Source: Rickettsiales bacterium
GTDB taxonomy: Bacteria > Pseudomonadota > Alphaproteobacteria > Rs-D84
Length of the DNA: 64,000 nt
Assembly: GCA_031266915.1 (NCBI GenBank)
Contig: JAISAB010000002.1
Coordinates: forward strand, 12,738 to 76,737
Reading direction: 5' to 3'
Position numbers and translations under genes: made by a program. The notes under the pieces are model-generated. The model was not told the origin of the DNA. It saw only the letters and a list, made by a program, of their open reading frames with translations, and searched no databases. Position 1 is the stretch's first letter. Every line of letters begins with the position of its first letter. Below are positions 2,317-64,000 of this stretch, in pieces.

Positions 2317-3618
2317 TTAATCCGATATTTTTTGCACTAATACACGAGCAAACCCACTTTTTCCGTTTGTATAAGGTTCATATCGTTTATCTTGAACGAT
2401 TTCATATCCGCGTTCCAATAATCCATCCAAAATAGGATTTGCCGATACGGCAAACGGCTTTTCATAATCGTTCGGAATATATCCATTATCAACCAACAAG
2501 GTTTCTGTATCATCATATTTTTTGTTTTTTTCTGGTATATCTGCCATTGGAATAATTTTTAAACATTTTGCTTTTGGACGATTCATGACGGGCAAGTTTG
2601 TGAACCAATGCCCCGCTGCTGTCATCAACTCTTTTTTCGGATTCAGATACCAACGAACCCGTCTATGCCCAGCCCAAACCTTTCCATTCATAAAATACGG
2701 AATGTATGCTGTATTTATTGTGTTTGTATAATTTGATATAATCAAAAACTTCTTACCGCTTTCAATTATTATTTTCCAATAATCTATTGCCCGCGAAAAT
2801 GGCGGGTTCGTGCAAACTATATCCGCTTCATCGTGCAAGATTCGCAAAGATTCTTTATCGTCAAAACTGCCAGTATAGTTGTCTGGTTCTGTTTTTATCT
2901 CTTGAAACCCGTCCTTGGTAAAAATATACCCTTTGCCTTTTGCATTGAATAAATCAAGACCGCCGCTGTAATGCGCACATATTAACTTTTTCAATCCAAG
3001 TTGCATAAAGTTCTGTATAAAATAAAGTGCAAACGCAGATGTATTATTGCCGTTTCGTGGAATGTCGCCGACCGCATCATCGCAATTACAGAAAACAACC
3101 TTATTTATCCAAATCTCTTTATCATACATTGCGATTTCTTTTTCTATGTCTTCATAGCGGGTATAAAACTCATCATTTTTGACTTTTCTTGCTTTTTGCA
3201 TCAGGTCTTTATGGGTTATATCTCTTTCTTTCAATGTTGGTGTTGTTTTCTTGATGATTTTCACAATGCGCTTTTTCGTATCGGGTTTCATAAAAACCTG
3301 TTTGATAAACAACTGGTGGGACTTTATAAAATCAACATATCCATCAAACAGTGCAGAATTATAAAAATAGATTTCACGCCGCGAATCTTCGCGTAATTGA
3401 GGAAAGTGATTTTTTATATCATTTTCCATTTTCTGCATATCCTTGACTTCGCAGGTAAACAAATACTGATAAACGTTATCTTTTGACCTGCCAGTCATGT
3501 TATTATATTCCGACAACCGCCGTTCAAGATTATCGGTCAATCCAATCTTGCATTTTCCTTGTTCTAACGATGCCTGAACAATATAGATATATTGTTTATT
3601 TTTCTTTTCCATGACCAT
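2317..3618 (-). CDS. Low-GC fusion protein: N-terminal GIY-YIG/T5orf172-like nuclease domain plus C-terminal amino-methyltransferase domain (motif IV 'IVCTNPPF'); putative DNA N6-adenine/N4-cytosine methyltransferase
   Basis: KQYIYIVQ…KIGLTDNLERRLSEY (GIY-YIG-like) then …DIVCTNPPFS. GC is about 33% against about 60% for neighbours. ORF tool start is 3822; ATG at 3618 (MVMEKKNKQ) chosen. Confidence 0.65.
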   Translation of the reverse strand: MVMEKKNKQYIYIVQASLEQGKCKIGLTDNLERRLSEYNNMTGRSKDNVYQYLFTCEVKDMQKMENDIKNHFPQLREDSRREIYFYNSALFDGYVDFIKSHQLFIKQVFMKPDTKKRIVKIIKKTTPTLKERDITHKDLMQKARKVKNDEFYTRYEDIEKEIAMYDKEIWINKVVFCNCDDAVGDIPRNGNNTSAFALYFIQNFMQLGLKKLICAHYSGGLDLFNAKGKGYIFTKDGFQEIKTEPDNYTGSFDDKESLRILHDEADIVCTNPPFSRAIDYWKIIIESGKKFLIISNYTNTINTAYIPYFMNGKVWAGHRRVRWYLNPKKELMTAAGHWFTNLPVMNRPKAKCLKIIPMADIPEKNKKYDDTETLLVDNGYIPNDYEKPFAVSANPILDGLLERGYEIVQDKRYEPYTNGKSGFARVLVQKISD

Positions 3619-3954
3619 TTTATCCCTGTTTCTACACTGATAGCAATTATATGATAAACGTTTTGACATTGCAAGGAATTGCATAACATCTGTGATAATC
3701 TGCTTGCGTAGCTGATTTCTTATGCCTTTAATATCAAAGGATGCAGAACAGATTTGAATTCTGTATGCAAATATGTCGTCAACAAGGCGAAGACAGAGGC
3801 AACTAGATAAATATCTCAACAATTACTGGAAAGGTACATTCTTGGTGGTTTAGCTATATTGATAAAAGAACGCCCTGCGCCGCCGCAGGGAAAATATATT
3901 ATTTATCAAGCACAACCGACAAGAATGTACCTTTTTGGCCCCAAAAGCCCAATA

Positions 3955-8543: not shown

Positions 8544-11203
8544 AAAGCAACATCTTCTGCGCAAGCAATCCGGCAAGGCTGATTGACGCCTTGTGGGAAA
8601 TCATAAAGCAGGGCGGGTCGGACTTTTCCGACGACATTATATTCCTGCCGTCGCGGCGCGCTGCGCGCAGCGTTGAAAAAATGCTGGTTGAAAAATCCGG
8701 CGCCGCGGTATTGCTGCCTACGCTGGTGGCATTGGGCGAGGGTGCGGACGAAGACGACGATGACGTCGTCCATTCTGATGTTGTGTCGAATACCGAGCGC
8801 GTCGTCGTTCTGGCGAAACTGCTGAGCGCGGACGCGAACATACGGACGATTTCGAACGCGCTGCCGATTGCGCGCGATTTGACGCGTATGCAGGATTACC
8901 TGGAAAACGAGGGAATTGCCGCCGCCGCGATTGACTGGCCGGCGCTGGTCGATGAAAAGTACGCAGCGCATTTTCAGAAAAAGGCGGAATTTTTGAAATT
9001 ATCCGGCGCGTTCCTGTCTAACATATTTCCCAACAAAATCACCGAAACTCAAAAAAGAAACGCCGACATCCGCGCATGGATTAAATCCGAAATACTAAAT
9101 AATAAATCTAAAATCATTGTCTGCGGATCGACCGGCAGCGTACCGGCGACCGCCGACTTGATGGCCTATGTCGCGGGCATGTCCAACGGCTATATCATTC
9201 TGCCGGGCAAAATTAATTGCGGCCCCGGCGAATGGCCGATGGACGGCGGATTCAACGCGTGCAATCCGTACCATTGCGAAAAAATGTTCCTGGACCGGAT
9301 AAGCGTCGCGCCGTCTGACGTTCAAATTATCGATACAGGCCCGTCGAACATGGATTTCCTGAACGCTGCATTTTCAAATTCGGTTAACGGTTCACGGTTC
9401 ATGGTTTACGGCACGCAGTTGGTCGAATGCGCGCGCGAAAGCGAAGAGGCATGGTGCGTCGCCGAAATTGCTGCCCGCGCCGTGGCAGACAACAAAACCG
9501 TTCTGGTTATAACGCCCGACGCCGCCGGAAACCAGCGCATTGCCGCGGCGCTGAGCCATCGCGGCATAGCGGCCGACTTTTCGGGCGGAAAAAGCGGCGC
9601 CATGACGCTGGCGGGACGCGCGCTGTTGAATCTGTTCGACGATTGGATAGAGGATAAAAATTCGTCCGCATTCGACGGTTTGTATAAACGCAACGATTCC
9701 AATTTGTTCAAAACGTTGGTTGAGATTGTTGAAACAATGCCCGATGTTCTGTCGCCGCGGTTCCAATTCGATTCCGATGAATCGGCCGTCGTCTGGGACG
9801 CGCTGGAAAAGACGTCCGACGCATTGTCAAGGAACGGAATCGCGCTGACATTGTCCGACGCGCGCGCGGTGGTTGCGGACGCGCTGGCCGGCGCGACGGT
9901 CCGCCCGCCGATGAACGACGGCGCGGCCGTCTGCGTGCTGGGGACAATCGAATCCAGAATGCAAAGCGCCAATGTCGTCGTCCTGACCGGCTTGAACGAA
10001 GGGATGTTTCCCGCGCAAGGGTACGAGAATTCGTGGCTGCCGCGCACTATGGCGCAGAAAATCGGATTGCCGCCGGCGGACAGAAAGGTGTCGCTGATGG
10101 CACTGGACTTTATGAATCTGTCCTGCGGCGCGGAAGTTTACTGGCTGCGCAGCAAGACCGCCGGCGGCAGCCAGACCACCGAGAGCCGGTTTCTTTCAAG
10201 AATACAAGTCGCGACAAAGGTCGCAGATCGCAGAGCACAGAGCGAAGGTTTCGCCGCTTCGCGGCAGAGCGTAGAGCGCAGGTCGCAGGTGGAAGGTGTT
10301 GAACCACCTGCGCACTGCGCACTGCGACCTTCCACCTTGCTGCAAGCGGTGCGGGCCCGCGACGAGGTCGAATACAGGCCGCTGGATTATTCGCCGCCGC
10401 GCATTCCGGCCGACCGCAGCGACGTCTATGTGACCGAACTGGAATTGCTGATTCATAATCCTTATGCTTTCTATGCGCGGCATATATTGCGTCTGCGCCC
10501 GTTGGACGATTATTGGCAGGAACCCGATGCGCGCGACTTCGGCAATCTGGTGCACGGCGTGATAGAAGAATGTTCAAAGTTCAAAGTTCAGAGTTCAGAT
10601 GATTTGATAGAAATGATGGACAAACGCGCGAAGCAAATATTGCCGGCGGGCAGTGCCGTATATCATTTCTGGCACAAGCGCTTTGTCGAAATCGCTCCGG
10701 CTGTCGAGGCGCTGCTGCGGGAATCGCAGAGCCTGAACCGGCAGCAATCAGAAATCGACCTTTGTACGACCATCGCGGGTCGTCGCGTCCGTGCGCGCGC
10801 GGATATGGTTTATTACAAGCAATTTCCCGATTCTGCGGAACCGATTACCGTTGCGCTGGACATCAAAACGGGTGCAGTCCCGTCAAGAAGCCAGCTAGAG
10901 CAGGGCAATATGCCGCAATTGCCGCTGGAGGCGCATATGATTCAATCAGGCGGATTCGCCCAGGGGTCGGGGCCCCAGGTTCAAAGCCCGAATGTCGTCA
11001 TGCAGTTTCTGCAACTGAAAAACAATAACGTAAAGCTGATTGAATACGACGCGGACGCGACGCAAAAGATGATTGATGCCGCCGTCGACAAAGTATCACA
11101 GCTGTTCGGTCGATATTCGAATGATGGCGAGCCGTATGAATACTACGAAACGTCCGACCCAAAGTATAAGGTCTATGACGACCTGGCCCGCGTTGACGAT
11201 TAA
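8534..11203 (+). CDS. addB: AddB-like double-strand-break repair nuclease/inactive-helicase subunit, carrying an in-frame palindromic-element insertion
   Basis: N-terminal …IFLPSRRAARSVEKML… and C-terminal PD-(D/E)xK region (ADMVYYKQ…DIKTG), typical of alphaproteobacterial AddB. Confidence 0.6.
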   Translation: MPVKSNIFCASNPARLIDALWEIIKQGGSDFSDDIIFLPSRRAARSVEKMLVEKSGAAVLLPTLVALGEGADEDDDDVVHSDVVSNTERVVVLAKLLSADANIRTISNALPIARDLTRMQDYLENEGIAAAAIDWPALVDEKYAAHFQKKAEFLKLSGAFLSNIFPNKITETQKRNADIRAWIKSEILNNKSKIIVCGSTGSVPATADLMAYVAGMSNGYIILPGKINCGPGEWPMDGGFNACNPYHCEKMFLDRISVAPSDVQIIDTGPSNMDFLNAAFSNSVNGSRFMVYGTQLVECARESEEAWCVAEIAARAVADNKTVLVITPDAAGNQRIAAALSHRGIAADFSGGKSGAMTLAGRALLNLFDDWIEDKNSSAFDGLYKRNDSNLFKTLVEIVETMPDVLSPRFQFDSDESAVVWDALEKTSDALSRNGIALTLSDARAVVADALAGATVRPPMNDGAAVCVLGTIESRMQSANVVVLTGLNEGMFPAQGYENSWLPRTMAQKIGLPPADRKVSLMALDFMNLSCGAEVYWLRSKTAGGSQTTESRFLSRIQVATKVADRRAQSEGFAASRQSVERRSQVEGVEPPAHCALRPSTLLQAVRARDEVEYRPLDYSPPRIPADRSDVYVTELELLIHNPYAFYARHILRLRPLDDYWQEPDARDFGNLVHGVIEECSKFKVQSSDDLIEMMDKRAKQILPAGSAVYHFWHKRFVEIAPAVEALLRESQSLNRQQSEIDLCTTIAGRRVRARADMVYYKQFPDSAEPITVALDIKTGAVPSRSQLEQGNMPQLPLEAHMIQSGGFAQGSGPQVQSPNVVMQFLQLKNNNVKLIEYDADATQKMIDAAVDKVSQLFGRYSNDGEPYEYYETSDPKYKVYDDLARVDD
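10217..10340 (+). repeat. Palindromic element of about 125 bp (terminal inverted repeat AGGTCGCAG…CTGCGACCT) inserted in-frame in addB; RPE-like
   Basis: Near-identical copy at 47946..48079 inside xerC/D; open in several frames on both strands. Confidence 0.8.
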
Positions 11204-20638: not shown

Positions 20639-21124
20639 ATGACGCGCATTTTGGGGATTGACCCCGGGCTTTTGCACACGGGATGGTCTGTGATTGATTC
20701 GGCCGGCAACGCGCGGGCCTATGTCGCCAGCGGCGTGATTCTGCCGCCAAAGACCGAGGAGCTGGCCGTGCGCCTGGCATTTATTTTCCGCGAAGTGTCG
20801 AAATTGCTGGATATATGGAAACCTGACGAATGCTCGGTCGAAATCATATTTGTGAACAAGAATCCGAAAACGACGCTGGTTCTGGGCCAGGCGCGCGCGG
20901 CCGCGCTGATTGCCGTCGCGGACAAGGTTATCCCGGTTTTCGAGTACGAGCCGAACAAGATAAAAAAAGCGCTGAGCGGCGCGGGCCACGCCGACAAGGA
21001 ACAGATTTATAAAATGGTGAAGCTGCTGCTGCCGGTGGCCAATCCGAAAACGTCGGACGAAAGCGACGCGATTGCCATCGCGCTGGCGCATAGTAATATG
21101 AGCAGGGTAATAGTTAGTAAATAG
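20639..21124 (+). CDS. ruvC: Crossover junction endodeoxyribonuclease RuvC
   Basis: MTRILGIDPGLLHTGWSV…; catalytic D/E pattern; …AIAIALAH… C-terminal motif. Confidence 0.85.
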   Translation: MTRILGIDPGLLHTGWSVIDSAGNARAYVASGVILPPKTEELAVRLAFIFREVSKLLDIWKPDECSVEIIFVNKNPKTTLVLGQARAAALIAVADKVIPVFEYEPNKIKKALSGAGHADKEQIYKMVKLLLPVANPKTSDESDAIAIALAHSNMSRVIVSK

Positions 21125-21212
21125 TGATTAGTGCTTAGTTGATAGTGCATAGTTAATTAGTTCACTAATCACTATAAACTATTCACTATACACTACCAAC
21201 TATTTGTTTTTC
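21104..21212. repeat. TAGTNNN-heptad hairpin element between convergent ruvC and the 21211 gene
   Basis: tagtgat tagtgct tagttga tagtgca tagttaa … cactaat cactata aactatt cactata. Confidence 0.7.
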
Positions 21213-21609
21213 AGTTTCCGCACAGCGTGTGCGTGCCGGACGAATCGCGGACCTGGATGCATCCGTTTTGAAACCATATCTTTGCGCGTCCGGCCGGGGC
21301 CGCGGCCGATGGTTCCGATGTCTTGACGGTGTCGAAACGCGCGTCGTCGCCGGCCGCGACGGTGCCTGTATCCGTACCGACGGGAATCCGCGCGATACCT
21401 AATGTTCCACTTGTTATATTCGCCGCATTCGTCTGGTCCAAGTTCTGAACGTTACCGAGGCCGACCTGGGCCGCCGTCACGTTATGCGGATTGTCAGTTC
21501 GCGCGGTGTGCGCGTCGACATAGCTCTTGCCGGCAATTTCCGCCAATGCCGGCGTCGCGGCAAAAAAACATAATAAAAACATAATTCGTTTTTTCATATT
21601 CACAGCCAT
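21211..21609 (-). CDS. Secreted tail-fibre-like protein, short paralog (signal peptide + 'EIAGKSYVD…DNPHNVTAAQVGLGNVQN…' N-module + small Cys C-terminus)
   Basis: N-module about 80% nucleotide-identical to the start of the upstream gene 21600..22475; motifs recalled from phage tail-fibre N-terminal domains. Confidence 0.55.
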   Translation of the reverse strand: MAVNMKKRIMFLLCFFAATPALAEIAGKSYVDAHTARTDNPHNVTAAQVGLGNVQNLDQTNAANITSGTLGIARIPVGTDTGTVAAGDDARFDTVKTSEPSAAAPAGRAKIWFQNGCIQVRDSSGTHTLCGN

Positions 21610-22475
21610 ATGTCCGACAGCATATTTATCATGTCGCCGCCGGACAGGTAATAGACTTCGTCATTGCAGCTGTTGACGCAATTGGTATAGCTGTTGCCGC
21701 CAAGCTGGTTCCAGTTTGAATTTGTCGGGTAATACCATCGGGACGTGCGGCCGTATTTGTCCGTTGCGCGAATCCAGCAATATCTGCGGGCGTGGTATTC
21801 CATAGTCTGGTCAATCGCGACTTCTTCGATAACGCGTCCGGTGCCGCCGGGCCGCGTGGTCGACGAGCATGTCGCGACCAGGAAAAATTTCTGGCCCAGA
21901 TGCGCCGCCAGCGCCCCGGCGCACAAATTCGACGTGCAGCTTTTGCCGCAATACTCGCCCCGATACAAACTAACGCTTACCAAGGTCCCGTTCGGCCCCA
22001 TTACCAATCCGGCGGTTTCGCCCGCGACGCCGCACATCAGTCCCAGCTCGTGTTTGCTGACGTAATCGACCGGCTGTCCGGCGCCGTTTTCGCACAGGGC
22101 GGGGGTCGTCACGCCGCCGCTGCGAACATAAAGGCATCCGTTTTCATACCATACCTTATCGCGGCCGTCGGCGGGAAGGCGCCAGGGCTCGGCCAATTCG
22201 ACGGTGTCGAACCGTGCGTCGTCGCCGGCCAAGACAGTGTTTTCATTTGTTCCAATGGGAATTCGCGCGGCATCCAATATGCCGGCGGTTATGTTCGCCG
22301 CGTTCGTCTGGTCCAAATTCTGGACGTTTCCCAGACCGACTTGGGTCGCCGTCACGCTATGCGGATTATCCGTGCGCGCGGCGTGCGCGTCGATGTACGC
22401 GTTGCCGGCGACATCAGCCCTGGCGTTTGCAACGCATGCGATTATGCAAATAAGACCGGCGGCGATGGATTTCAT
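21600..22475 (-). CDS. Secreted tail-fibre-like protein with Cys-rich C-terminal domain (long paralog)
   Basis: Signal peptide MKSIAAGLICIIACVANARA; same N-module as 21211; ATG at 22475 chosen (ORF tool start 22505 is GTG). Confidence 0.6.
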   Translation of the reverse strand: MKSIAAGLICIIACVANARADVAGNAYIDAHAARTDNPHSVTATQVGLGNVQNLDQTNAANITAGILDAARIPIGTNENTVLAGDDARFDTVELAEPWRLPADGRDKVWYENGCLYVRSGGVTTPALCENGAGQPVDYVSKHELGLMCGVAGETAGLVMGPNGTLVSVSLYRGEYCGKSCTSNLCAGALAAHLGQKFFLVATCSSTTRPGGTGRVIEEVAIDQTMEYHARRYCWIRATDKYGRTSRWYYPTNSNWNQLGGNSYTNCVNSCNDEVYYLSGGDMINMLSDIWL

Positions 22476-22665
22476 TTTTAACCTGTTTGACACAAAGCCA
22501 CCCACAGCGAACGCAAGGGTGGTTGGAGGTTAAAGACTATAATTTTCAGAAAATAGCGGGCTTATTCGATATATTCGCCGCCCTCCAACCGATGGTTGGA
22601 GGTTTTTATCGTCCCCGCGGACGCTGAAAATTAAGAGGTCTTTACGCCCCGCCGCAGGCCTTTGC
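22476..22665 (-). promoter_or_regulatory. Conserved structured 5' leader, subtype 1 (as 11696..11872)
   Basis: Hairpin AACCTCCAACC-atc-GGTTGGAGG; linker CGAATATATCGAATAAGC; AACCTCCAACC; hairpin CCACCC-N-GGGTGG; shared distal module cgtccccgcggacgctga…agaggtc. Confidence 0.65.
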
Positions 22666-22919: not shown

Positions 22920-23216
22920 ATGAAAGATATGCCAAAAGACCAAATGGAACGCATCATGCACAAGTTGTATCACAAACGCAACTTTCTGCTGCGCGCGTTC
23001 GTAATCAACCTGGTTCTGATAATAGCGGTGTGGGGACTGTCCATGACGGATTTCTATGCGAATATGGCGGGACACTTTATGCACTGTCCGGCGGCGCAGG
23101 CGGAAACGTATACCATGGATTTGCTGGGCGCGTGGAAAATCGCGGGCGTTCTGTTCTTCCTGGTGCCTGCGCTGGCCGCATGGTGGGAACTGCATGCATG
23201 CCGGAAACGCCAATAG
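22920..23216 (+). CDS. Small hypothetical membrane protein (2 transmembrane helices)
   Basis: Two hydrophobic helices; intact ORF with upstream AT-rich promoter region. Confidence 0.45.
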   Translation: MKDMPKDQMERIMHKLYHKRNFLLRAFVINLVLIIAVWGLSMTDFYANMAGHFMHCPAAQAETYTMDLLGAWKIAGVLFFLVPALAAWWELHACRKRQ

Positions 23217-23312
23217 TTATTAGTGCATAGTGATTAGTGCTTAGTTTATAGTACATAGTTAAAATTTACTAAACACTAAGCACTATAAACTATGCACTAC
23301 TCACTAATGACT
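23214..23312. repeat. TAGTNNN-heptad hairpin element (7 heptads per arm) between convergent genes
   Basis: tagttat tagtgca tagtgat tagtgct tagttta tagtaca tagttaa | tactaaa cactaag cactata aactatg cactact cactaat gactatt. Confidence 0.75.
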
Positions 23313-23637
23313 ATTTTCTTATCGTCACCTTTGCCACGGCGTCATAGCCGAAGTATTTGTTTATCTTTGCCGCGATGTCGTCTTTCATATAGGATAATTG
23401 CAGCGCGAACGCCGGATTCGCGGCGCGCACGGCGATATTGAATTTCTTGTCGCGGGTCTTGGTTATCGCGGCCAGCCGCGCAATCGACGCGATGTCGCCG
23501 CCCATGATTTCATCCCAGCGATTGCTCAAATCAGCGTCTGATGCGCGGACGCCGAACAGCCGCATCAATCCCCCGAACGTCGACGCGATGGTCTGGGGGC
23601 GGGCAGTGCGTTTGTTAAGATTAACAGGATTGGCCAT
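23311..23637 (-). CDS. DUF721/DciA-like protein (putative helicase-loader family)
   Basis: …RWDEIMGGDIASIARLAAI…FNIAVRAANPAFALQLSYMKDDIAAKINKYFG…VKVTIRK fits the DUF721 pattern. Confidence 0.5.
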   Translation of the reverse strand: MANPVNLNKRTARPQTIASTFGGLMRLFGVRASDADLSNRWDEIMGGDIASIARLAAITKTRDKKFNIAVRAANPAFALQLSYMKDDIAAKINKYFGYDAVAKVTIRK

Positions 23638-25331: not shown

Positions 25332-25437
25332 ATCAAATTCTGCGGGTTCTTGTCGCGTTTGCTGATTCTCATGTACGTTATGTACACTTCGAATCATCAA
25401 ACACTTCCAATAACCTCGCATAATTTGATTTCTTAAA
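25329..25437 (+). repeat. Post-stop element family B copy after secB (core TCATGTAC-GTTATG-TACACT; stem gtttgctgattc/gaatcatcaaac)
   Basis: Seen directly. Confidence 0.65.
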
Positions 25438-25462
25438 AAAACCGGCGAAAGCCGGTTTTTTA
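25434..25462. terminator. Bidirectional Rho-independent terminator (aaaaaaaccggcgaaagccggtttttt)
   Basis: Perfect hairpin flanked by A- and T-runs. Confidence 0.8.
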
Positions 25463-25554
25463 AATAGCAAATATCAAATAGCAATTTGGTGCAGAATTGG
25501 GCTATAACACCATAAACGGCACCCCATTTGCTATTTGATATTTGCTAATTGCTA

Positions 25555-25720
25555 TTTTTCTTCTGGACACGGGCGTCACAAAGGCGCACAATGCCATCAC
25601 AGGACCGCTAATCCAAACCATCCTTGGATTGTACATAGTTCCCGTTTTCAAAAATCCCGCATTTCCGCCGTCTCTTATTTCCCATTTATTGCCTAATCTA
25701 AACCATGGTTTTTATATCAT
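25555..25720 (+). promoter_or_regulatory. 165-bp duplicated promoter/5'-UTR block (second copy 63805..63965) containing TTATTGCCTAATCTAAACCATGGTTTTTATATC (-35/-10-like)
   Basis: About 90% identical to 63805..63965; the TTGCCT-N17-TATAT motif is also at 44290 and 44395; upstream of a secreted tail-fibre-like gene. Confidence 0.55.
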
Positions 25721-25743
25721 TCTTGGCAATGGGGAAAAGAGAG

Positions 25744-26385
25744 ATGAACAGAATAATTTCCAAGTTATCACGTGTGTTATTATGTGTGGCGCTTATCGCG
25801 TTATTTGCACCCATGTCGGCCCGGGCCGAAATCGCGTCTAAGTCCTATGTAGATAGTCTGGCGATGCCGAACGGTGACGATTACTTGCAAAAAGCCGGCG
25901 GCACGATGACCGGTGAAATCGCGATGGGCGGAAATAAAATAGCAGGTTTGGGCGCGCCGACGGACGGCGACGATGCGACGACCAAGGACTATGTTGATAA
26001 TCTGGCCGCGGCCGGCGGAGGGACCATCGGCGGCGGTTCCGTCCCATCGTGGGCCGCGCTGAACGGCGAAGACTGGGCGGACAGCGGCTGGGGCGTCAAA
26101 TGGGTTGTCGATAACGGAACATATATGGTTGACGGCGTCGGCACATGCCTGTCGACAGATAGCAGAAGCGGCATCCTACCCAGCACATTCGGTTACGGCC
26201 CGAACTGCTGGTGCAGGGTCGAAGGAATAAACAATACGCGCGTTTTGGGCGCCTGGGTGTTCAAGCATACTGAAAGCGGCGGCTATGAAGATTGTTATGC
26301 GACCTGCGCGTCAAGATGCGCCAATTGCGTACGCGTAGGCTCGTCCGATGGATGCAGCCGCGCCGCGTTGTTCACTGCGCCATGA
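25744..26385 (+). CDS. Secreted tail-fibre-like protein ('EIASKSYVD…GGTMTGEI…KDYVDN' N-terminus) with Cys-rich C-terminus
   Basis: Signal peptide MNRIISKLSRVLLCVALIALFAPMSARA; motifs recalled from phage tail-fibre/collar N-termini; C-terminal CWC…CYATCASRCANC. Confidence 0.55.
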   Translation: MNRIISKLSRVLLCVALIALFAPMSARAEIASKSYVDSLAMPNGDDYLQKAGGTMTGEIAMGGNKIAGLGAPTDGDDATTKDYVDNLAAAGGGTIGGGSVPSWAALNGEDWADSGWGVKWVVDNGTYMVDGVGTCLSTDSRSGILPSTFGYGPNCWCRVEGINNTRVLGAWVFKHTESGGYEDCYATCASRCANCVRVGSSDGCSRAALFTAP

Positions 26386-26389
26386 TAAT

Positions 26390-26605
26390 AAATAATAAAG
26401 AATAGATAATAAAGAATAAAAATATGTTCGGTCTAATTTCCCCTCCTATGGAGGGGTGGCGCGCGGATGCGCGACGGGGTGGTTAGAGGTTTCGAGATTA
26501 AATTTTGATTATCCAACCACCTCCCGGTCTTCGACCGTACTCCTCCAAAGGAGGAGAACTTAGACCGAACATATTTTTATTCTTTATTATTTATTCATTA
26601 AAAAG
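26390..26605. mobile_element. MITE-like non-coding element with terminal inverted repeats of about 30 bp (ataataaagaataaaaatatgttcggtctaa … ttagaccgaacatatttttattctttattat) enclosing several GC hairpins
   Basis: Terminal inverted repeats seen directly; a solo repeat-like sequence (aataaagaatagagaataaagaataaa) occurs at 2213..2245 next to the low-GC island. Confidence 0.55.
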
Positions 26606-26698
26606 GGCAAATATGATTCGCCCCTACATCACCTGGGTCGCGGGGTCAAGCCCCGCGATGACAAAGCAAGGAGTGACAGCCACTGGATGACAGCTTGA

Positions 26699-26822
26699 GA
26701 AATAGTCTATAGTCGATAGTCATTAGTCTATAGTGATTAGTATTTAGTTGATAATGCATAGTTGACTAGTTTACTGAACACTAACGACTATTGACTATAG
26801 ACTAATGATTATTGACTACACC
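26699..26822. repeat. TAGTNNN-heptad hairpin element
   Basis: tagtctatagtcgatagtcattagtctatagtgattagtatttagttgataatgcatagttgactagtt … and reverse-complement arm. Confidence 0.7.
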
Positions 26823-26863
26823 GTGTGGTTTTGTGATATGATGTTCCAACGGGGGGCGTCTGT

Positions 26864-28049: not shown

Positions 28050-28185
28050 GGATAGCATATAGCGGTAGTTGATAACCATTAGTGATTAGTGCATAGTGTT
28101 TAATTATTAGTAAACTAGTTAACTATTCACTATAAACTAATCACTATTAACTACTGACTAATGACTATTGACTAACAGTTGTTTT
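28050..28185. repeat. TAGTNNN-heptad hairpin element between MFS gene and recA
   Basis: …cattagtgattagtgcatagtgtttaattattagtaaactagttaactattcactataaactaatcactattaactactgactaatgactattgacta. Confidence 0.7.
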
Positions 28186-28223
28186 CTCTGTACCATTTGT
28201 CTTAAGAAAAAAGAGGAAAGGTT

Positions 28224-30252: not shown

Positions 30253-31260
30253 ATGCCGGCAATATCGGTCGTGATACCTGTATATAATGTTGAAAAATAC
30301 CTGCGGCGCTGTTTGGACAGCGTCGCGGGTCAGACTTTCTCGGACTGGGAGGCGATTTGCGTCAACGACGGCAGCCCTGACAACAGCGCCGCGATACTGG
30401 CCGAATACGCCGCACGCGACAAGCGGTTCAAAGTCATCACCAAGGAAAACGGCGGCCTGTCCGACGCGCGCAATGTCGGCACGGACGCCGCGACCGGCGA
30501 CTATCTGATTTATTTGGATTCGGACGATTTTATTCATCCCCAGACGATGGAATTTTCCTATGCGCTGGCGCAGCGCGACGGTTCCGACATCGTATCCTGG
30601 TACAAGGATAAGTTCTTTCGCCCGCAGTTGCTGATATGGTACAAGCTGGGGTTCGACATCGATTCCATGATGCCGCGCCGAATCAAAAAAAGGTACAAGC
30701 TGGAAAAAATCAGGACATGCGTCACGGACGATGTCTTCGCGCATACGACCGAGCGTCCGAACAGCAGCATCAAATGGCCCATCAAGCATTTTTACGTATG
30801 GCGCCATTTAATCCGCCGCGAATTCATCAAAGGAATAAAATTCATCAAGGGAATCACTTTCGAGGATTTTCCCTGGTGGTCCGAGGTCATGCTGCACCAT
30901 CCGCGCGTCACGATTACCAAGCTGCCGTTCCTTTATTACTTTCCGAACCTTAATTCCATCGACATGGCGTCCAACGAGGTCAAGAAAGTGCGCAACTGGA
31001 TAATCGGTTTGGAATCGTCTTACAATATGTACAGGGCACGGGCGACCGATTATGAAAAGATCGCATGGGAACGCGAAGTCATGTGGCCGGTCATCGTCTA
31101 TCAGATTTTTCGCAAGGTAAGATATATCAAAAAGTCGGCGGATGCCGAATTTATCAAAGAGACGTTGCTGCGTTTCAAAGAAATGGGCATGTTCGACAAT
31201 CCACAGACCTGGCGGGCAAAAATATATCAGCGCAGAATTTTGAAGTATATCAATCAATAG
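30253..31260 (+). CDS. Family 2 glycosyltransferase
   Basis: ISVVIPVYNVEKYLRRCLDSV…NDGSPD…YLDSDD GT2 motifs. Confidence 0.8.
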   Translation: MPAISVVIPVYNVEKYLRRCLDSVAGQTFSDWEAICVNDGSPDNSAAILAEYAARDKRFKVITKENGGLSDARNVGTDAATGDYLIYLDSDDFIHPQTMEFSYALAQRDGSDIVSWYKDKFFRPQLLIWYKLGFDIDSMMPRRIKKRYKLEKIRTCVTDDVFAHTTERPNSSIKWPIKHFYVWRHLIRREFIKGIKFIKGITFEDFPWWSEVMLHHPRVTITKLPFLYYFPNLNSIDMASNEVKKVRNWIIGLESSYNMYRARATDYEKIAWEREVMWPVIVYQIFRKVRYIKKSADAEFIKETLLRFKEMGMFDNPQTWRAKIYQRRILKYINQ

Positions 31261-31352
31261 TCATTAGTGAGTAGTGCATAGTTTATAGTGATTAGTGAAT
31301 TAGTTAACTATGCACTATAAACTAAGCACTAATCACTATGCACTAACTATTA
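31256..31352. repeat. TAGTNNN-heptad hairpin element between convergent glycosyltransferase genes
   Basis: tagtcattagtgagtagtgcatagtttatagtgattagtgaattagtt | aactatgcactataaactaagcactaatcactatgcactaacta. Confidence 0.7.
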
Positions 31353-32210
31353 AATATTGTATTCCCGGAATCGCGATGGGATTTTTGTGACCAGTTTGAT
31401 GCCAAACATAAACGGCTTGTTCCATGCATATGGCGGTCGGAATACCGTCTGCATCGCGCGCGCCAATTTGATATAGGACGCGCGGCGGCGCTTTTTCCGT
31501 GTGATGATAAAAATCGTTTCGGCGCGGCGCGCCAGATGTTTCCGCCAATTCGGATTCCGGTCGCCGATTTTGTTTCGAAGCATCTCGTAATCAACACTGC
31601 CGAAATGCAACAGGTGCAGATTTTTATCAATATGGAAATTGTGTCTTTTGACGCTGTGAAATCCGCTGCCCCAGCGCAGCGGTTTCGCCAAGACCACAGG
31701 CTTGGTATAGCGCGTCGACAGCAGGGCGTATTCGCGCTGCGCCAGGAATGGCTCGTTCGCGTCCAATGGATATTCGCGATTCAAATCCTGACCGACGTCC
31801 AGGCCCAGGCCTGAAACAGAGGTTTTAATGTCCGCGTCCGACAAATATTGTTTCAGCGTCTTGCCAACCGCCGGGTTGACGACCAGGAATTCGTCGCAAT
31901 CGCATCCGATAACCAAGTCATATCCCTGGGCAAACAATTCCGTGGCCCGTTTTGACAGCAATCTGATGCGGTGTTTGTCGCCGGCCCGGCGGGACAGCCC
32001 GTCGATATGTTCCATCTTGGTTATATGGGCGTTTCGGGCGCCGCCTGGGATTTTCTGGTCCAGACCGTCAAGGTAGATGTACAGATTTTCTTCGCCCAAT
32101 TGTTCGCCGTAATAGGCAATCCAACGGTTCAGAAAGAACTCGTCATTTCGCGCCATAGTTATCGCGGCGATTCTATTCCCGCGCCGACGGGAATCCTTTG
32201 TATTTGACAT
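31350..32210 (-). CDS. Putative glycosyltransferase (GT2-like fold)
   Basis: Within the glycosyltransferase cluster; IAAITMARNDEFFLNRWIAYY…YLDGLD resembles GT2-type N-terminal motifs (weak). Confidence 0.45.
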   Translation of the reverse strand: MSNTKDSRRRGNRIAAITMARNDEFFLNRWIAYYGEQLGEENLYIYLDGLDQKIPGGARNAHITKMEHIDGLSRRAGDKHRIRLLSKRATELFAQGYDLVIGCDCDEFLVVNPAVGKTLKQYLSDADIKTSVSGLGLDVGQDLNREYPLDANEPFLAQREYALLSTRYTKPVVLAKPLRWGSGFHSVKRHNFHIDKNLHLLHFGSVDYEMLRNKIGDRNPNWRKHLARRAETIFIITRKKRRRASYIKLARAMQTVFRPPYAWNKPFMFGIKLVTKIPSRFREYNI

Positions 32211-43255: not shown

Positions 43256-44167
43256 ATGTATGACGTTATTATTTTGGGCTCGGGACCGGCCGGATTGACG
43301 GCGGCGCTGTATTGCGCCCGCGCAGGAAAGCGGACGCTGGTCCTGGGCGGCGACAAGCTGGGCGGCCAGACGGCCGGCATCGCCATATTGGAAAATTACC
43401 CGGGCTGGGCCGGCAGTGGGCTGGAACTGTCCAAATTCATAAAGAACCAGGCGACTAGCTTCGGCGCTGAGATTATTCTCGCCAGCGCGAAATCTGTTAC
43501 GGCGAATCAGAAACAGGGAATCGGATTTACGGTCGTTGCCGACAACGCGGCGGAATATGAATCGCGGGCCGTCATCGCGTCGACCGGCGCGTCGCCGCGC
43601 AAGTTGGAAATCGCCGGCGCGCGCGAATTGTTCGGCCGTGGCGTATCCTATTGCGCGACGTGCGATGGATTCTTTTACAACGGCAAGAGCGTACTGGTCA
43701 TCGGCGGCGGGAATTCCGCGCTGAACGACGCGCTGTATCTGGCGGATTTGGCCGAAACGGTAAAGATTGTTTATCGCAAGGATTCCTTTGCCCGCGCCGA
43801 ACAGGTTATGGTCGACCGCGTCAATGAAAGGTCCAACATCGAATGTCTGTTCAACACGGAACTGGCAAGCCTGGCGCTTAAACCGGACAGCGCGGATGGC
43901 GAATTGATTGCGACCACGACAAGCGGCGATACGATTGCATGCGACGGCGTGTTTGTCGCCATCGGGCACGAGGCCAATACGGATTATCTGCCCGAAGACA
44001 TCAAGCGCGACGACATGGGGCGTCTGGCGCAAAGCGAATTGCCGCCGGGCCTGTTTGTTGCCGGCGACGTGCAAAGCGACCTGAAGATGCAGATTGCAAC
44101 TGCGGTCGGCACTGGCTGTTCGGCCGCGATGGACGCGATTGCGTTTATTAACACCAGTAGTGAATAG
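43256..44167 (+). CDS. trxB: Thioredoxin-disulfide reductase TrxB
   Basis: MYDVIILGSGPAGLTAALYCARAG…CATCDGF…GGGNSALNDALYL; ATG at 43256 with GGAGA Shine-Dalgarno. Confidence 0.9.
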   Translation: MYDVIILGSGPAGLTAALYCARAGKRTLVLGGDKLGGQTAGIAILENYPGWAGSGLELSKFIKNQATSFGAEIILASAKSVTANQKQGIGFTVVADNAAEYESRAVIASTGASPRKLEIAGARELFGRGVSYCATCDGFFYNGKSVLVIGGGNSALNDALYLADLAETVKIVYRKDSFARAEQVMVDRVNERSNIECLFNTELASLALKPDSADGELIATTTSGDTIACDGVFVAIGHEANTDYLPEDIKRDDMGRLAQSELPPGLFVAGDVQSDLKMQIATAVGTGCSAAMDAIAFINTSSE

Positions 44168-44262
44168 TCATTAGTCAGTAGTCTATAGTCAATTAGTTAA
44201 TAAAGTCGTCGGCTCCGCCGACACATTCACTAGTGACTATTGACTAATGACTATTCACTAGC
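44160..44262. repeat. TAGTNNN-heptad hairpin element with central GC hairpin (gtcgtcggctccgccgacac)
   Basis: agtgaatagtcattagtcagtagtctatagtcaattagtt … cactagtgactattgactaatgactattcactag. Confidence 0.7.
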
Positions 44263-44509
44263 GTTTTAATAGTTGACTTTTTTCACGATAAATACTATTG
44301 TCAGCGTGACGGATTGCCTAATCTAAACCAGCGTTTTTGCGACGCTTTTTTTATGTTTTTTATTCATTGGTTTTCTCGGCTTTTTTCATTTCTTTTATTG
44401 CCTAATCCAAACGCTGGTTTTGATTAGCAGTCTGGGGGTTGCCATAAAGGCGCGGGTTTCCCAGTGTTTTTTGCCTTTTAAACAGGTTGCGAAAATCGGG
44501 GTTCCGATT

Positions 44510-45229
44510 ATGGCGATATTGCTGTGTTTATTCGCGTTCGGCCCGGCGCATGCCTATGATAGAGACTGTAACGACGAATATGAAAATTACTGTGGATTTG
44601 TGCTTCAAATTGGAAGAAGAGATACGGTAACTTGTTCTGGGGAGTATTATATGGGCGAATATATCGGAGACGTTACATGCGGTTGTAGTGATCCCGAAAA
44701 AGAACTTTCACGTGAAGCTGGCGGTTGTGTTTGTATGTCGGGATATTATGGTCTGGGCGGTAACGAAGCCTGCAATAAATGTCCGGACAACGGTCTTGCG
44801 GACAGCGGTGGGGATAACAAAGGTGGCTTGCTCAATGGTAGTATAGAAGATTGCTATAAAATCATGAATAATGTTTCTGATTCGTCGGCTCATGCCACGC
44901 TAAGGCAAATGTGTTTTTATAAAGACGGTTCGTACAGCGACTGCACGATGACATCGATTGTTAGGTGCGAGGCGGGATATTACCGCGTTAACGCGTCAGA
45001 TTTATCGTGTGTCGCGGTCGGCGTGAATTATTACAGCGTTTCGCCTTTTTCCCGCCAGTTGTGCGAGTCTTATACCAATCCGTCAGGCGGCGCGTCCTAT
45101 GGTCAGACAAGCGGTTACGGTACCGACGCAGACGCCAAAACCGATTGCAAAATCCCGGGAACCGAGGTCTTTACCGACACCACCGGCAGTTGGAATTACG
45201 ACTACGGCGGATGCCCGTGGAGCAATTAA
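44510..45229 (+). CDS. Secreted cysteine-rich protein (signal peptide MAILLCLFAFGPAHA; more than 25 Cys)
   Basis: Cys-rich repeats (CGC, CVC, CNKC…); upstream TTGCCTAATC(T/C)AAAC motifs. Confidence 0.55.
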   Translation: MAILLCLFAFGPAHAYDRDCNDEYENYCGFVLQIGRRDTVTCSGEYYMGEYIGDVTCGCSDPEKELSREAGGCVCMSGYYGLGGNEACNKCPDNGLADSGGDNKGGLLNGSIEDCYKIMNNVSDSSAHATLRQMCFYKDGSYSDCTMTSIVRCEAGYYRVNASDLSCVAVGVNYYSVSPFSRQLCESYTNPSGGASYGQTSGYGTDADAKTDCKIPGTEVFTDTTGSWNYDYGGCPWSN

Positions 45230-47659: not shown

Positions 47660-48631
47660 TTATAACTTCCTCCGCGCCAGCGGATGGTGCTGTTCGACGG
47701 TGTCCCGCAGTTTCTGGGGCAGGACGTGCGTGTATATCTGCGTGGTGGAAATATCCTCGTGCCCCAGCATGGTCTGAATCGCGCGCAGGTTCGCGCCGCC
47801 CGCCAGCAGATGCGACGCGAACGAATGCCGCAGGACGTGCGGGCTGACGCGATTCGGGTCGATTCCGGCCAGGACCGTGCACTTTTTCAATATCTTGAAA
47901 AATCCGTCGCGGGTTATGTGACCCGTCTTGCTGTTTGATGGAAAAACATATTTTGAGGTCGCAGAGCGCAGAGCACAGAGCGCAGGTTTCGCCGCTTCGC
48001 GGCAGAGCGAAGAGCGCAGGTCGCAGGTAGAAGGTGTTGATAATGACGAACCACCTTCGCTCTGCGTTCTGCGACCTTCCACCTGTTGCGCATCCATCCA
48101 CTTGCCCAGCGCGCGCTGGGCGGATTCGTGCATCGGGACCAGACGTTCCTTGGCGCCCTTGCCGTGAATCAGCAACTTGTCGCCCAAGACGGCGGTAACG
48201 GGCAGCTCGCACAGCTCGGACACGCGCAAACCCGACGCGTACAGCAATTCCAGCATGGCCCGCAGGCGCAGTGAATTTTTAATATCGCCGGCGCTGGATA
48301 TTAGCAGCTCGATTTCGTCGACCGACAGGAATTTCGGCAACGTTTTCTGGCGCTTGGGCAATTCCAAGCCAATCGACGGATTGGCATGGATGATTTTTTC
48401 CAACATCAGGAATTTGTAAAATCCGCGCAGAGAGCTGGCCTTGCGCGCAACCGACGACGCGCGGCAGGGCAGGGACGACAGATACGACTGCAGCGCCTCG
48501 GCGGTCGTGGCCGTCAAATCGCCCAGATGATTCTGCGCGTGCGACAGGTCGCTGCCATAGCTTTCCAGCGTTTTTCTGCTGCGGCCTTTTTCGGCCGACA
48601 GGGCCTCTAAAAATATCTCGATACAATTCAT
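47660..48631 (-). CDS. XerC/XerD-family tyrosine recombinase carrying an in-frame palindromic-element insertion
   Basis: …HVLRHSFASHLLAGGANLRAIQTMLGHEDISTTQIYTHV… catalytic R-H-R-Y box; start at MNCIEIF (ATG 48631). Confidence 0.8.
   Translation of the reverse strand: MNCIEIFLEALSAEKGRSRKTLESYGSDLSHAQNHLGDLTATTAEALQSYLSSLPCRASSVARKASSLRGFYKFLMLEKIIHANPSIGLELPKRQKTLPKFLSVDEIELLISSAGDIKNSLRLRAMLELLYASGLRVSELCELPVTAVLGDKLLIHGKGAKERLVPMHESAQRALGKWMDAQQVEGRRTQSEGGSSLSTPSTCDLRSSLCREAAKPALCALRSATSKYVFPSNSKTGHITRDGFFKILKKCTVLAGIDPNRVSPHVLRHSFASHLLAGGANLRAIQTMLGHEDISTTQIYTHVLPQKLRDTVEQHHPLARRKL
47946..48079 (+). repeat. Second copy of the palindromic element of about 130 bp (terminal inverted repeat AGGTCGCAG…CTGCGACCT), in-frame in xerC/D in the opposite orientation relative to the host gene
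   Basis: About 85-90% identical to 10217..10340; adds about 45 aa (…QQVEGRRTQSEGGSSLSTPSTCDLRSSLCREAAKPALCALRSATS…). Confidence 0.8.
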
Positions 48632-48775
48632 CGGAACAATACGATTTCGGTTGTATTCTGCGTCGGCGCGAACGAGACAATCATCAGCACCACAACGATG
48701 GCGACGACCGTCCAAACGATAATTTTGTTGCGCGTCGTGTTTTTCTTCTTCAGTGGCATATCGGATTCCTTTTGC

Positions 48776-53672: not shown

Positions 53673-53900
53673 CCAAACCTCCTTTTTTTTTGCGAATGAA
53701 AAAACCACCAGAAATTGGTGGTTGGAGGTTAGCGACTATCATTGCAAATAGCGGCGGTATTCGATATATTCCCGCGCCCTCCAACCGAAACGATTGGAGA
53801 CACAAAAAACATGCACGACAACGCTTCGTGCCAGCGTGCAATGAAGGAGGTCGCTAAACCCCGTCGCGGAAACTCTCCGCGGCACAAAGATTATGCACCG
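53673..53900 (-). promoter_or_regulatory. Conserved structured 5' leader, subtype 2: candidate attenuator/riboswitch
   Basis: Gene-sense: CTCCAA/TTGGAG hairpin; GGTTGGAGG…linker GAATATATCGAATACCGCC…AACCTCCAACC; terminator CCACC-AATTTCT-GGTGG-UUUUUU; CATTCGCAAAAAAAAAGGAGG-ATG. Confidence 0.7.
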
Positions 53901-63800: not shown

Positions 63801-63804
63801 ATTT

Positions 63805-63965
63805 ATTTTTTTGCTGGACACGGGCGCCACAAAGGCGCACAATGCGCTTACGGGACCGCTAATCCAAACCATCCTTGGATTGTACATAGTTGCTATTCTT
63901 AAAAATCCCGCATTTCCGCCATATCTTATTTCCCATTTATTGCCTAATCTAAACAATGGTTTTTA
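63805..63965 (+). promoter_or_regulatory. Second copy of the 165-bp promoter/5'-UTR block (see 25555..25720)
   Basis: ctggacacgggcgccacaaaggcgcacaatg…ttattgcctaatctaaacaatggtttttatg; the downstream gene lies beyond the window. Confidence 0.55.
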
Positions 63966-64000
63966 TGTTTTTTCTGAGAATCACAAAACGCTATTGCAGA

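Follow-up and report, generated by a model that had tools for sequence, protein, structure and literature searches.

The 64,000-nucleotide (nt) stretch analysed here, hereafter the window, comes from the chromosome of a small alphaproteobacterium. It carries recA, secB, mltA, ruvA and several glycosyltransferase genes, and it raises the question of why one and the same block of sequence stands in front of a gene for a secreted, tail-fibre-like protein (25744..26385) and again near the end of the window. A preliminary description had put this block at about 165 bp and had taken it for a shared promoter or operator of a set of secreted-protein genes. The repeat itself was confirmed: in alignment, positions 25553-25730 and 63804-63981 form a direct repeat of 178 nt with 88% identity. 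We propose that the block makes up an entire 5' cassette, a diverged and decayed relative of compact DNA-inversion switches that form a family in Alphaproteobacteria of the gut. To this reading we give a probability of roughly 0.6, with the inversion deduced from comparative and design evidence and not from reads.

The homology between the two repeat copies begins just 5' of a promoter-like site, and the sequence further upstream is unrelated. The 15-mer TTGCCTAATCYAAAC has four exact matches in the window (25689, 44314, 44398 and 63940), against 0.27 expected by chance, and the core CTAATCYAAAC forms three same-strand pairs, at 25608/25693 (85 bp apart), 44318/44402 (84 bp) and 63859/63944 (85 bp). 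Since the core occurs in pairs, each copy has two boxes, of which the preliminary description had missed the first. The middle pair falls within 44250-44470, a region colinear with the block in alignment and containing a diverged third copy (44273-44430). The motifs noticed earlier upstream of the gene at 44510 do belong to the same system. Below, the three copies are called A, B and C, and F and R denote the two orientations of the segment between the boxes. Their features are as follows.

25553..25730, + strand: cassette copy A (promoter plus leader), a direct repeat 5' of the tail-fibre-like gene; the same block stands 5' of paralogues on contigs L151 and L152.
25564..25592, + strand: sigma-70-type promoter of copy A, TGGACA-N17-CACAAT, at the 5' edge of the block and upstream of Box 1; the sole promoter-like site found by a consensus scan of 25380-25800.
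25605..25636, + strand: Box 1 of copy A, CCGCTAATCCAAAC-CATC-CTTGGATTGTACAT, left arm intact, right arm decayed (palindrome 5/14).
25637..25689, + strand: inter-box segment of copy A, F orientation, central motif AAAAATCCCGCATTTCCGCC at 25650-25669; aligns gap-free to the oriented segments of the family.
25690..25721, + strand: Box 2 of copy A, TGCCTAATCTAAAC-CATG-GTTTTTATATCATT, which contains the -35/-10 pair proposed earlier as well as AAACCATGGTTT.
63804..63981, + strand: cassette copy B, with promoter at 63815-63843, Box 1 at 63856-63887 and Box 2 at 63941-63972; its gene lies past the window end.
44273..44301, + strand: promoter of copy C, TTGACT-N17-TATTGT, from the consensus scan.
44315..44353, + strand: Box 1 of copy C, TGCCTAATCTAAAC-CAGC-..., with a local terminator stem (44330-44346), followed by T7, in place of the right arm; from the scan and box comparison.
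44399..44430, + strand: Box 2 of copy C, TGCCTAATCCAAAC-GCTG-GTTTTGATTAGCAG, a near-complete palindrome with a centre reverse-complementary to that of Box 1; the outer inverted repeat of copy C matches at 18/22 positions.

A two-box scan (CTAATCYAAAC-N70-78-CTAATCYAAAC) over 185,579 species genomes returned 29 stretches, about 21 of them true cassettes, in about 17 metagenome-assembled genomes (MAGs) of Alphaproteobacteria, several of which are gut-labelled (deer rectum, wild mice, Candidatus Enterousia). Scanning metagenomes with the same two-box pattern added only two new true cassettes, L050 and L112, the rest being mostly eukaryote-like tandem repeats. The family comprises about 26 homologous cassettes. 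Their box-anchored alignment gave a canonical order of promoter, leader of about 28 nt, Box 1, a segment of 53-55 nt, Box 2 and gene, with a strong TTGCAA-N17-TATAAT promoter at the same position, about 28 nt 5' of Box 1, in about 20 of them. The canonical Box 1 is a 32-bp palindrome, TGCCTAATCCAAAC-NNNN-GTTTGGATTAGGCA, while Box 2 has the same left arm, the reverse-complement centre and an often degenerate right arm. A 22-nt inverted repeat, inner or outer, matches at 19-22 of 22 positions in 14 distinct cassettes (16 with the strand duplicates L002/L027 and L006 counted). A variant layout occurs in L025, L006 and L029, where a sigma-70 promoter lies between the boxes, as in classical invertible promoters; it points toward the gene in L025 and away from it in L006 and L029, toward the 3' ends of ppdK and dnaN. 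Throughout the family, the gene behind the cassette encodes a protein with a signal peptide, a Cys-rich or Thr/Pro-rich protein, or a GT1 glycosyltransferase. A search of the literature found the box sequence not mentioned for bacteria and no description of the box or the cassette family. No Rfam family matches the block: in the window and 10 canonical loci just tRNAs reach the gathering score, and the hits to the block at E<=10 are noise.

The two boxes of a cassette covary at their centres. Their central dinucleotides are reverse complements of each other in 28/28 distinct cassettes (shuffled mean 8.2, p<=1e-5), in centre variants that include CACC/GGTG, GGAG/CTCC, GGAC/GTCC, CAGC/GCTG and GGCC/GGCC. 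Mismatches between partner boxes occur at the outer centre positions of 11 cassettes and nowhere else in the centre. A simple operator does not predict this covariation. Of the earlier idea of shared control, the part that is supported is a shared 5' regulatory cassette for a set of secreted-protein genes.

The segments between the boxes, in turn, are found in both orientations. With 8 of them reverse-complemented, the 26 segments from cassettes whose promoter lies outside can all be aligned gap-free, and they then display a common layout of a T6-7 run, about 8 nt and AAAAT-CCCGG-ATTT-CCGSS-ATTTTT. With a position weight matrix (PWM) built solely from the other orientation group, 7/8 of the reversed segments score 23-38 bits when reversed versus -19 to +4 as they stand (z 4.3-7 against their own shuffles). 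Both orientations are seen among loci and among species, and they coexist within one genome, in the tandem pair of L007 (raw sequence) and in L009 versus L004, L018 and L019 of one MAG. Because promoter and gene stay fixed, it is the segment itself that is inverted. Segment alignment and PWM alike place copies A, B and C in orientation F; the segment of copy A scores 28.6 bits as is and -5.5 bits reversed.

What the segment offers to transcription differs between its orientations. In F, the T-run lies directly 3' of the Box 1 hairpin, and a terminator, defined as a hairpin and, 3' of it, at least 5 U within 8 nt, is predicted in 14/17 cassettes (13 by script, plus copy C by the consensus scan only). 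In R it is predicted in 0/8, and 7/8 gain one upon in silico flipping. Conversely, a Shine-Dalgarno (SD) sequence with an ATG lies within the segment in 7/24 cases in R versus 0/24 in F, the ATGs clustering at +45 to +48 from Box 1. The open reading frame (ORF) on the R strand encodes M-(R/Q)-x-K-S-G-I/T-F...K-K, in which the central motif AAATCCGGGATTTTT reads K-S-G-I-F and the A-run reads as Lys-Lys codons on that strand. There are seven loci at which the gene has no SD and start of its own, namely L007b, which is actually in R, and L008, L009, L014, L015, L019a and L112, which are in F. In 7/7 of these, the R-orientation ATG or GTG is in frame with the gene through Box 2 (read as L-P-N-P-N-G-G-L), and the start yields a complete signal peptide or joins a conserved glycosyltransferase N-terminus. 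More than 100 glycosyltransferase homologues begin M-K-R-K-T-I-A-I-C-L-R-D-M-Q; no cassette was found upstream of the orthologue P0034, which occurs on many contigs. The F-state loci keep the SD-ATG-ORF on the reverse strand intact, from which we infer that both states are used.

Taken together, these patterns suggest a mechanism in which a site-specific recombinase would flip the segment between the box centres. In orientation F, the U-run behind the Box 1 hairpin would complete an intrinsic terminator, the orientation in which copy C of the window stands. In orientation R, the segment would supply the SD, the ATG and the N-terminal codons, in frame through Box 2 into the protein; where a gene has its own SD and ATG, the R-orientation start would give merely a short upstream ORF. 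Copies A and B probably act as a fixed promoter plus leader and may be fixed derivatives; in them, the former invertible segment would now hold the 5' strand of a hairpin that sequesters SD and AUG. A bolder claim, on which we are evenly divided, is that these programmed inversion modules, with about 85 bp between their box centres, are smaller than any seen before, with a 53-55-bp segment used on both strands (as the U-tract tail of a terminator, or as SD, start codon and Lys-rich signal-peptide start read through the recombination site) and flipped by a recombinase at many surface-protein and glycosyltransferase loci of uncultured gut Alphaproteobacteria. If true, it would mean phase variation of surface proteins and glycans in these bacteria, an extreme test case for recombinase synapsis with sites only about 55 bp apart, and a compact case of one DNA segment serving both strands, as terminator or as translation start. 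The "promoter duplication" of the window would then be the conserved front end of a variable surface-protein family. Gene callers will mis-annotate the genes behind such cassettes, the OFF state hiding their start codons and assemblies breaking at the boxes.

For copy A itself, the family features are kept in part. Copies A and B retain both left arms, the match of the centres (CAT) and the central motif, and Box 1 of copy A keeps a 7-bp hairpin (AATCCAA/TTGGATT); neither the consensus scan nor the script finds a T-run beside Box 1 or predicts a terminator in copy A. The gene of copies A and B has its own SD and ATG, and in copy A a different structure is predicted.

25669..25746, + strand: predicted RNA hairpin of copy A, in which the SD (25731-25743) and the AUG (25744) pair with 25669-25692.

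The 5' strand of this hairpin lies at the right end of the inter-box segment. The fold has a free energy of -27.2 kcal/mol and z = -4.0, with 0/200 shuffles folding as well, and the differences in its 5' strand, both of those in L151 and 1/2 in L152, are C-to-U opposite G, which keeps wobble pairing. The predicted probability that the SD-AUG stretch is unpaired is 0.08 as is versus 0.63 after in silico flipping. Copy A may be a leader that is fixed and under translational control, or else a variant switch acting through SD sequestration. As a general OFF mechanism, SD sequestration was dropped, because it holds in just 4/13 loci, copy A included.

Several observations weigh against an inversion switch, in the window or in the family at large. 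In copies A and B the inverted repeats match at just 10-11 of 22 positions (the inner one of copy A at 10/22), and the right arms of both boxes and the U-run are lost. The L006 locus, the one locus sampled repeatedly, displays a single orientation in 12 independent assemblies, and no flip within a population was seen, as would suit a switch that is strongly biased or locked. When the window and about 26 loci of up to 8 kb were scanned for motifs, this revealed no serine recombinase motif in any cassette-bearing locus, and the sole tyrosine recombinase found there is a XerD-like gene of the window (47660-48715, - strand); Pfam annotation of 20 further window ORFs gave no recombinase either. Synapsis of sites just 53-55 bp apart would need extreme bending, the reported minimum spacing for Cre being about 82 bp. 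Furthermore, conservation is much higher in the left arms of the two boxes than in the right arms, and six cassettes, copy C among them, have a local terminator in place of the Box 1 right arm. Neither feature is predicted by a symmetric recombination site, and both hint at RNA-level or coding constraints or at locked states. Just 5' of Box 2, an NTG provides an in-frame possible start codon in orientation F, albeit without an SD. Finally, the cross-locus counts given above are not phylogenetically independent.

Could the cassettes then work at the level of RNA, with no rearrangement of the DNA? The right arm of Box 1 could fold back on its own left arm into a hairpin or terminator; alternatively, it could form a long-range helix of 22 bp with the left arm of Box 2, which is identical. 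A protein or small RNA binding UGCCUAAUCCAAAC would decide between the two. We consider such a leader switch unlikely, yet several observations agree with it: on the sense strand the left arms are nearly invariant while the right arms decay, terminator-like Box 1 structures are common, the SD-sequestering hairpin of copy A is strong, and at the variable Y, in five informative cases read directly, the Box 1 right arm is a better complement to the left arm of Box 2 than to that of Box 1. It leaves unexplained why segments exist in both orientations and why, at some loci, a promoter between the boxes points away from the gene, and no Rfam family matched. Moreover, Box 2 is transcribed after the decision to terminate and therefore cannot act as antiterminator. 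Effects at the RNA level may nonetheless coexist with inversion. The 32-bp palindromes and their strictly constant spacing of 84-85 bp would suit paired operators of a dimeric transcription factor, eight helical turns apart, with DNA looping that represses the upstream promoter and with the quasi-palindromic, A/T-tract-rich central motif helping the bend. This is quite improbable in our view, as looping leaves unaccounted for that the centres covary as reverse complements and explains neither the inverted segments nor an SD and ATG that are in frame in one orientation only.

The model of the preliminary description, in which TTGCCT-N17-TTATAT inside Box 2 (25689-25718) is the promoter and AAACCATGGTTT the operator of a shared regulator, accounts for a motif that is strongly over-represented, always lies 5' of secreted-protein genes and contains the palindromic AAAC-N4-GTTT. 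In its specifics we nevertheless regard it as very improbable. The TTGCCT site fails the promoter scan, which TGGACA-N17-CACAAT upstream passes as the only hit; its "-35" varies among homologues (ATGCC, GTGCC, CCGCC, TCGCC), with nothing resembling a -10 conserved after it; and Box 2 appears to be coding at 7 loci. The proposed operator is the core of Box 2, and its central 4 nt vary in step with the centre of Box 1, as the reverse complement of the latter. The promoter/operator reading is thus partly supported, being wrong in detail and right in spirit. Two related readings of the central motif were likewise dropped, namely a sigma-54 or extracytoplasmic function (ECF) sigma factor promoter, with which the spacing is inconsistent, and a second live promoter, whose -35/-10 positions are systematically degenerate and whose core is K-S-G-I-F on the other strand. 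Barely credible, to our mind, is a miniature mobile element of the MITE (miniature inverted-repeat transposable element) type that has spread 5' of genes with the boxes as its terminal inverted repeats. The cassettes are indeed multi-copy, carry inverted repeats and break assemblies, but their position and polarity are always the same, between the promoter and a surface-protein gene, they add in-frame coding sequence, and neither single boxes nor copies in other contexts were found.

Compared with characterised systems, the inversion switch proposed here is closest to cwpV of Clostridioides difficile, a surface-protein gene switched by the tyrosine recombinase RecV, with its promoter upstream of, and not within, the invertible region (PMC2784873). 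There, the OFF state has a stem-loop and poly-U at the junction of left repeat and segment, transcription ends 60-70 nt from the start, and the 195 bp between imperfect 21-bp repeats contain no coding sequence (PMC2784873). The cassette family likewise has an outside promoter and an OFF-state terminator where the left repeat meets the segment; window copy A lacks the terminator. In contrast to cwpV, the cassettes are far smaller, with 53-55 bp between 32-bp palindromic boxes; their ON orientation also gives SD, start codon and N-terminal codons; and they form a multi-locus family in Alphaproteobacteria with no recombinase linked to them in the loci scanned. The variants L025, L006 and L029 resemble instead fimS of Escherichia coli and the Mpi-flipped polysaccharide promoters of Bacteroides fragilis in having a sigma-70 promoter between the boxes beside surface-protein genes, whereas the majority of cassettes keep the promoter outside the segment. 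These three variants have no linked recombinase, in which they match global invertases. The known examples of invertible promoters have, to our knowledge, far longer invertible segments than the cassettes. General background on invertible promoters is available (PMC11602134).

The boxes also recall the sites of the serine recombinases Hin, Gin and Cin (hix, gix). Their core, AAAC-NNNN-GTTT with GGAT behind it, is similar to the gix core CTGTAAACCGAGGTTTTGGA, of which the key 12 bp for Gin are AAASSWWSSTTT (PMC5175349). The Box 2 sequence AAACCATGGTTT of the window fits this gix pattern exactly, and AAAC-NNNN-GTTT is present in every box; the central WW of AAASSWWSSTTT is A/T-only in a minority of boxes. 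The strict match between partner boxes is limited to the central dinucleotide, as a 2-bp staggered cut would require, and this fits serine-recombinase chemistry. Unlike the Hin/Gin sites, the cassettes often have a central WW that is not A/T, and neither a serine recombinase gene nor an enhancer was found in the scanned loci. The cassette spacing is also far too short for a classical Fis/enhancer invertasome. As to consequence, flipping a cassette would change the 5' coding end of a gene, as do the gene-altering or "partial intergenic" programmed inversions of the shufflon type (PMC9881135; PMC10028968). Those are long and usually swap alternative coding modules, whereas a cassette would exchange coding sequence for a terminator within about 85 bp.

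Which proteins, then, stand behind the cassettes? In the window, two genes could be assigned.

25744..26385, + strand: secreted Cys-rich protein with a tail-fibre motif, 213 amino acids (aa), behind copy A; identical to the MAG protein LBJ73_00690 at NCBI.
44510..45229, + strand: Cys-rich secreted protein behind copy C; the reading frame is open from 44420.

The earlier account of the first protein proved accurate in that signal peptide, EIASKSYVD after it, GGTMTGEI...KDYVD and a Cys-rich C-terminus were all found. The GGTMTGEI...KDYVD module gives weak matches to tail-fibre families of PHROG (E about 4e-4, residues 55-92); in the form GGTM.GEI...K.YVD it is optional in the protein family and the sole part that is phage-tail-fibre-like. 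Homology of the target to phage tail fibre proteins beyond the short collar motif was not found, the PHROG matches being confined to residues 46-92 at E 4e-4 or worse. The Cys-rich C-terminal domain is conserved in 8 paralogues; five paralogues lie in the same MAG as LBJ73_00690, and more occur in metagenome assemblies of JGI and Logan. No Pfam or NCBIfam family matches the protein, its AlphaFold model is unreliable (mean predicted confidence, pLDDT, of 46), and exact-protein look-ups for the target, its 226-aa variant, P0005, P0010 and the 44510 protein gave no record. The gene behind copy B is probably the paralogue P0010 (LBJ73_00870), judging from locus-tag arithmetic only; the Logan contig L001 ends within copy B, as expected at a repeat.

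In the sister-strain paralogues L151 and L152, whose contigs start within about 40 nt of the upstream edge of the block and are identical over their first approximately 110 nt, as is typical of a repeat, the block runs on into the signal-peptide codons, which makes it part of the 5' ends of a family of paralogous genes. Whether the block is simply part of a larger duplication that includes coding sequence thus has a divided answer: it does enter codons in L151 and L152, yet in copy B the homology stops about 20 nt past Box 2, with the window ending before any gene, and the block is far better conserved (88-95% nt identity) than the paralogous proteins (47-64% aa). In L152 (2806-4720), genes resembling those of phage capsids (PF05396, PF19821) follow about 2 kb downstream of the paralogue P0011, which has the same cassette, and given this neighbourhood some members of the tail-fibre-motif family may be associated with a prophage or gene transfer agent. 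Two more secreted proteins of the window, 21211-21609 and 21600-22505 (both - strand), carry the tail-fibre motif NPH.VTAAQVGLGNV.NLDQTNA, with PHROG tail matches down to E 6e-9, and are linked by a 220-nt internal duplication (21325-21544 versus 22200-22419, 78%). No boxes were found at this operon in the window (21211-22505, - strand); an orthologue of its proteins in L029 (2849-3250, - strand) stands behind a canonical cassette in the R (ON) orientation.

The protein behind copy C has the C-terminal motif (F/Y)(S/T)D.(T/S)G.(F/Y)..C.(Y/W), which is common to cassette-downstream proteins in other genomes. As (F/Y)(S/T)D.(T/S)G.(F/Y)...C.(Y/W), a motif at the very end was also noted in the otherwise dissimilar Cys-rich proteins of L002, L003, L004, L006, L011, L014, L018, L019, L024, L029 and L050 and in 44510-45229 of the window. 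It has no Pfam match and may be a sorting or anchoring signal.

As regards other repeats, the cassette block is one of several repeat families in the window. Palindromic arrays of 7-bp units flank genes in most intergenic regions (for example 21109-21216, 23205-23327, 26697-26839, 28064-28188, 31252-31359 and 44156-44281), with TAGTNNN on one side and NNNACTA on the other, besides AAATAGC, GCGCAGA and GGATGAT; they look like bidirectional terminators or elements resembling repetitive extragenic palindromes (REP). One heptamer palindrome of 85 bp (47956-48040), 95% identical to 10218-10302, lies in frame within the XerD-like gene at 47660-48715 (- strand) and adds about 37 residues to its product; this protein is still recognised as a tyrosine recombinase, though with a score under the XerD equivalog cutoff. 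A second repeat family, GGTGGTTGGAGGTTA, has five matches (11740, 22518, 22591, 26478 and 53717, in + strand coordinates) versus 0.05 expected and reads on the gene strand as TAACCTCCAACCACC-loop-GGTGGTT plus a T-run. At two loci it is preceded by a CCTCCAACC/GGTTGGAGG hairpin, just 5' of the ribosome-binding site of the gene at 53708 (- strand) and 5' of the first tail-fibre-like operon at 22505 (- strand). These repeats, which match no Rfam family, may be a family of leaders or attenuators. Directly 3' of the stop codon of the copy A gene, an inverted repeat with 62-nt arms (26396-26457 and 26539-26600, 90% complementary) encloses one GGTGGTT.GAGGTT motif. Elsewhere in the window, 2317-3822 (- strand) encodes an EcoRI-like adenine methyltransferase fused to a T5orf172/GIY-YIG-like domain and adjoins tRNA-Gly and tRNA-Tyr.

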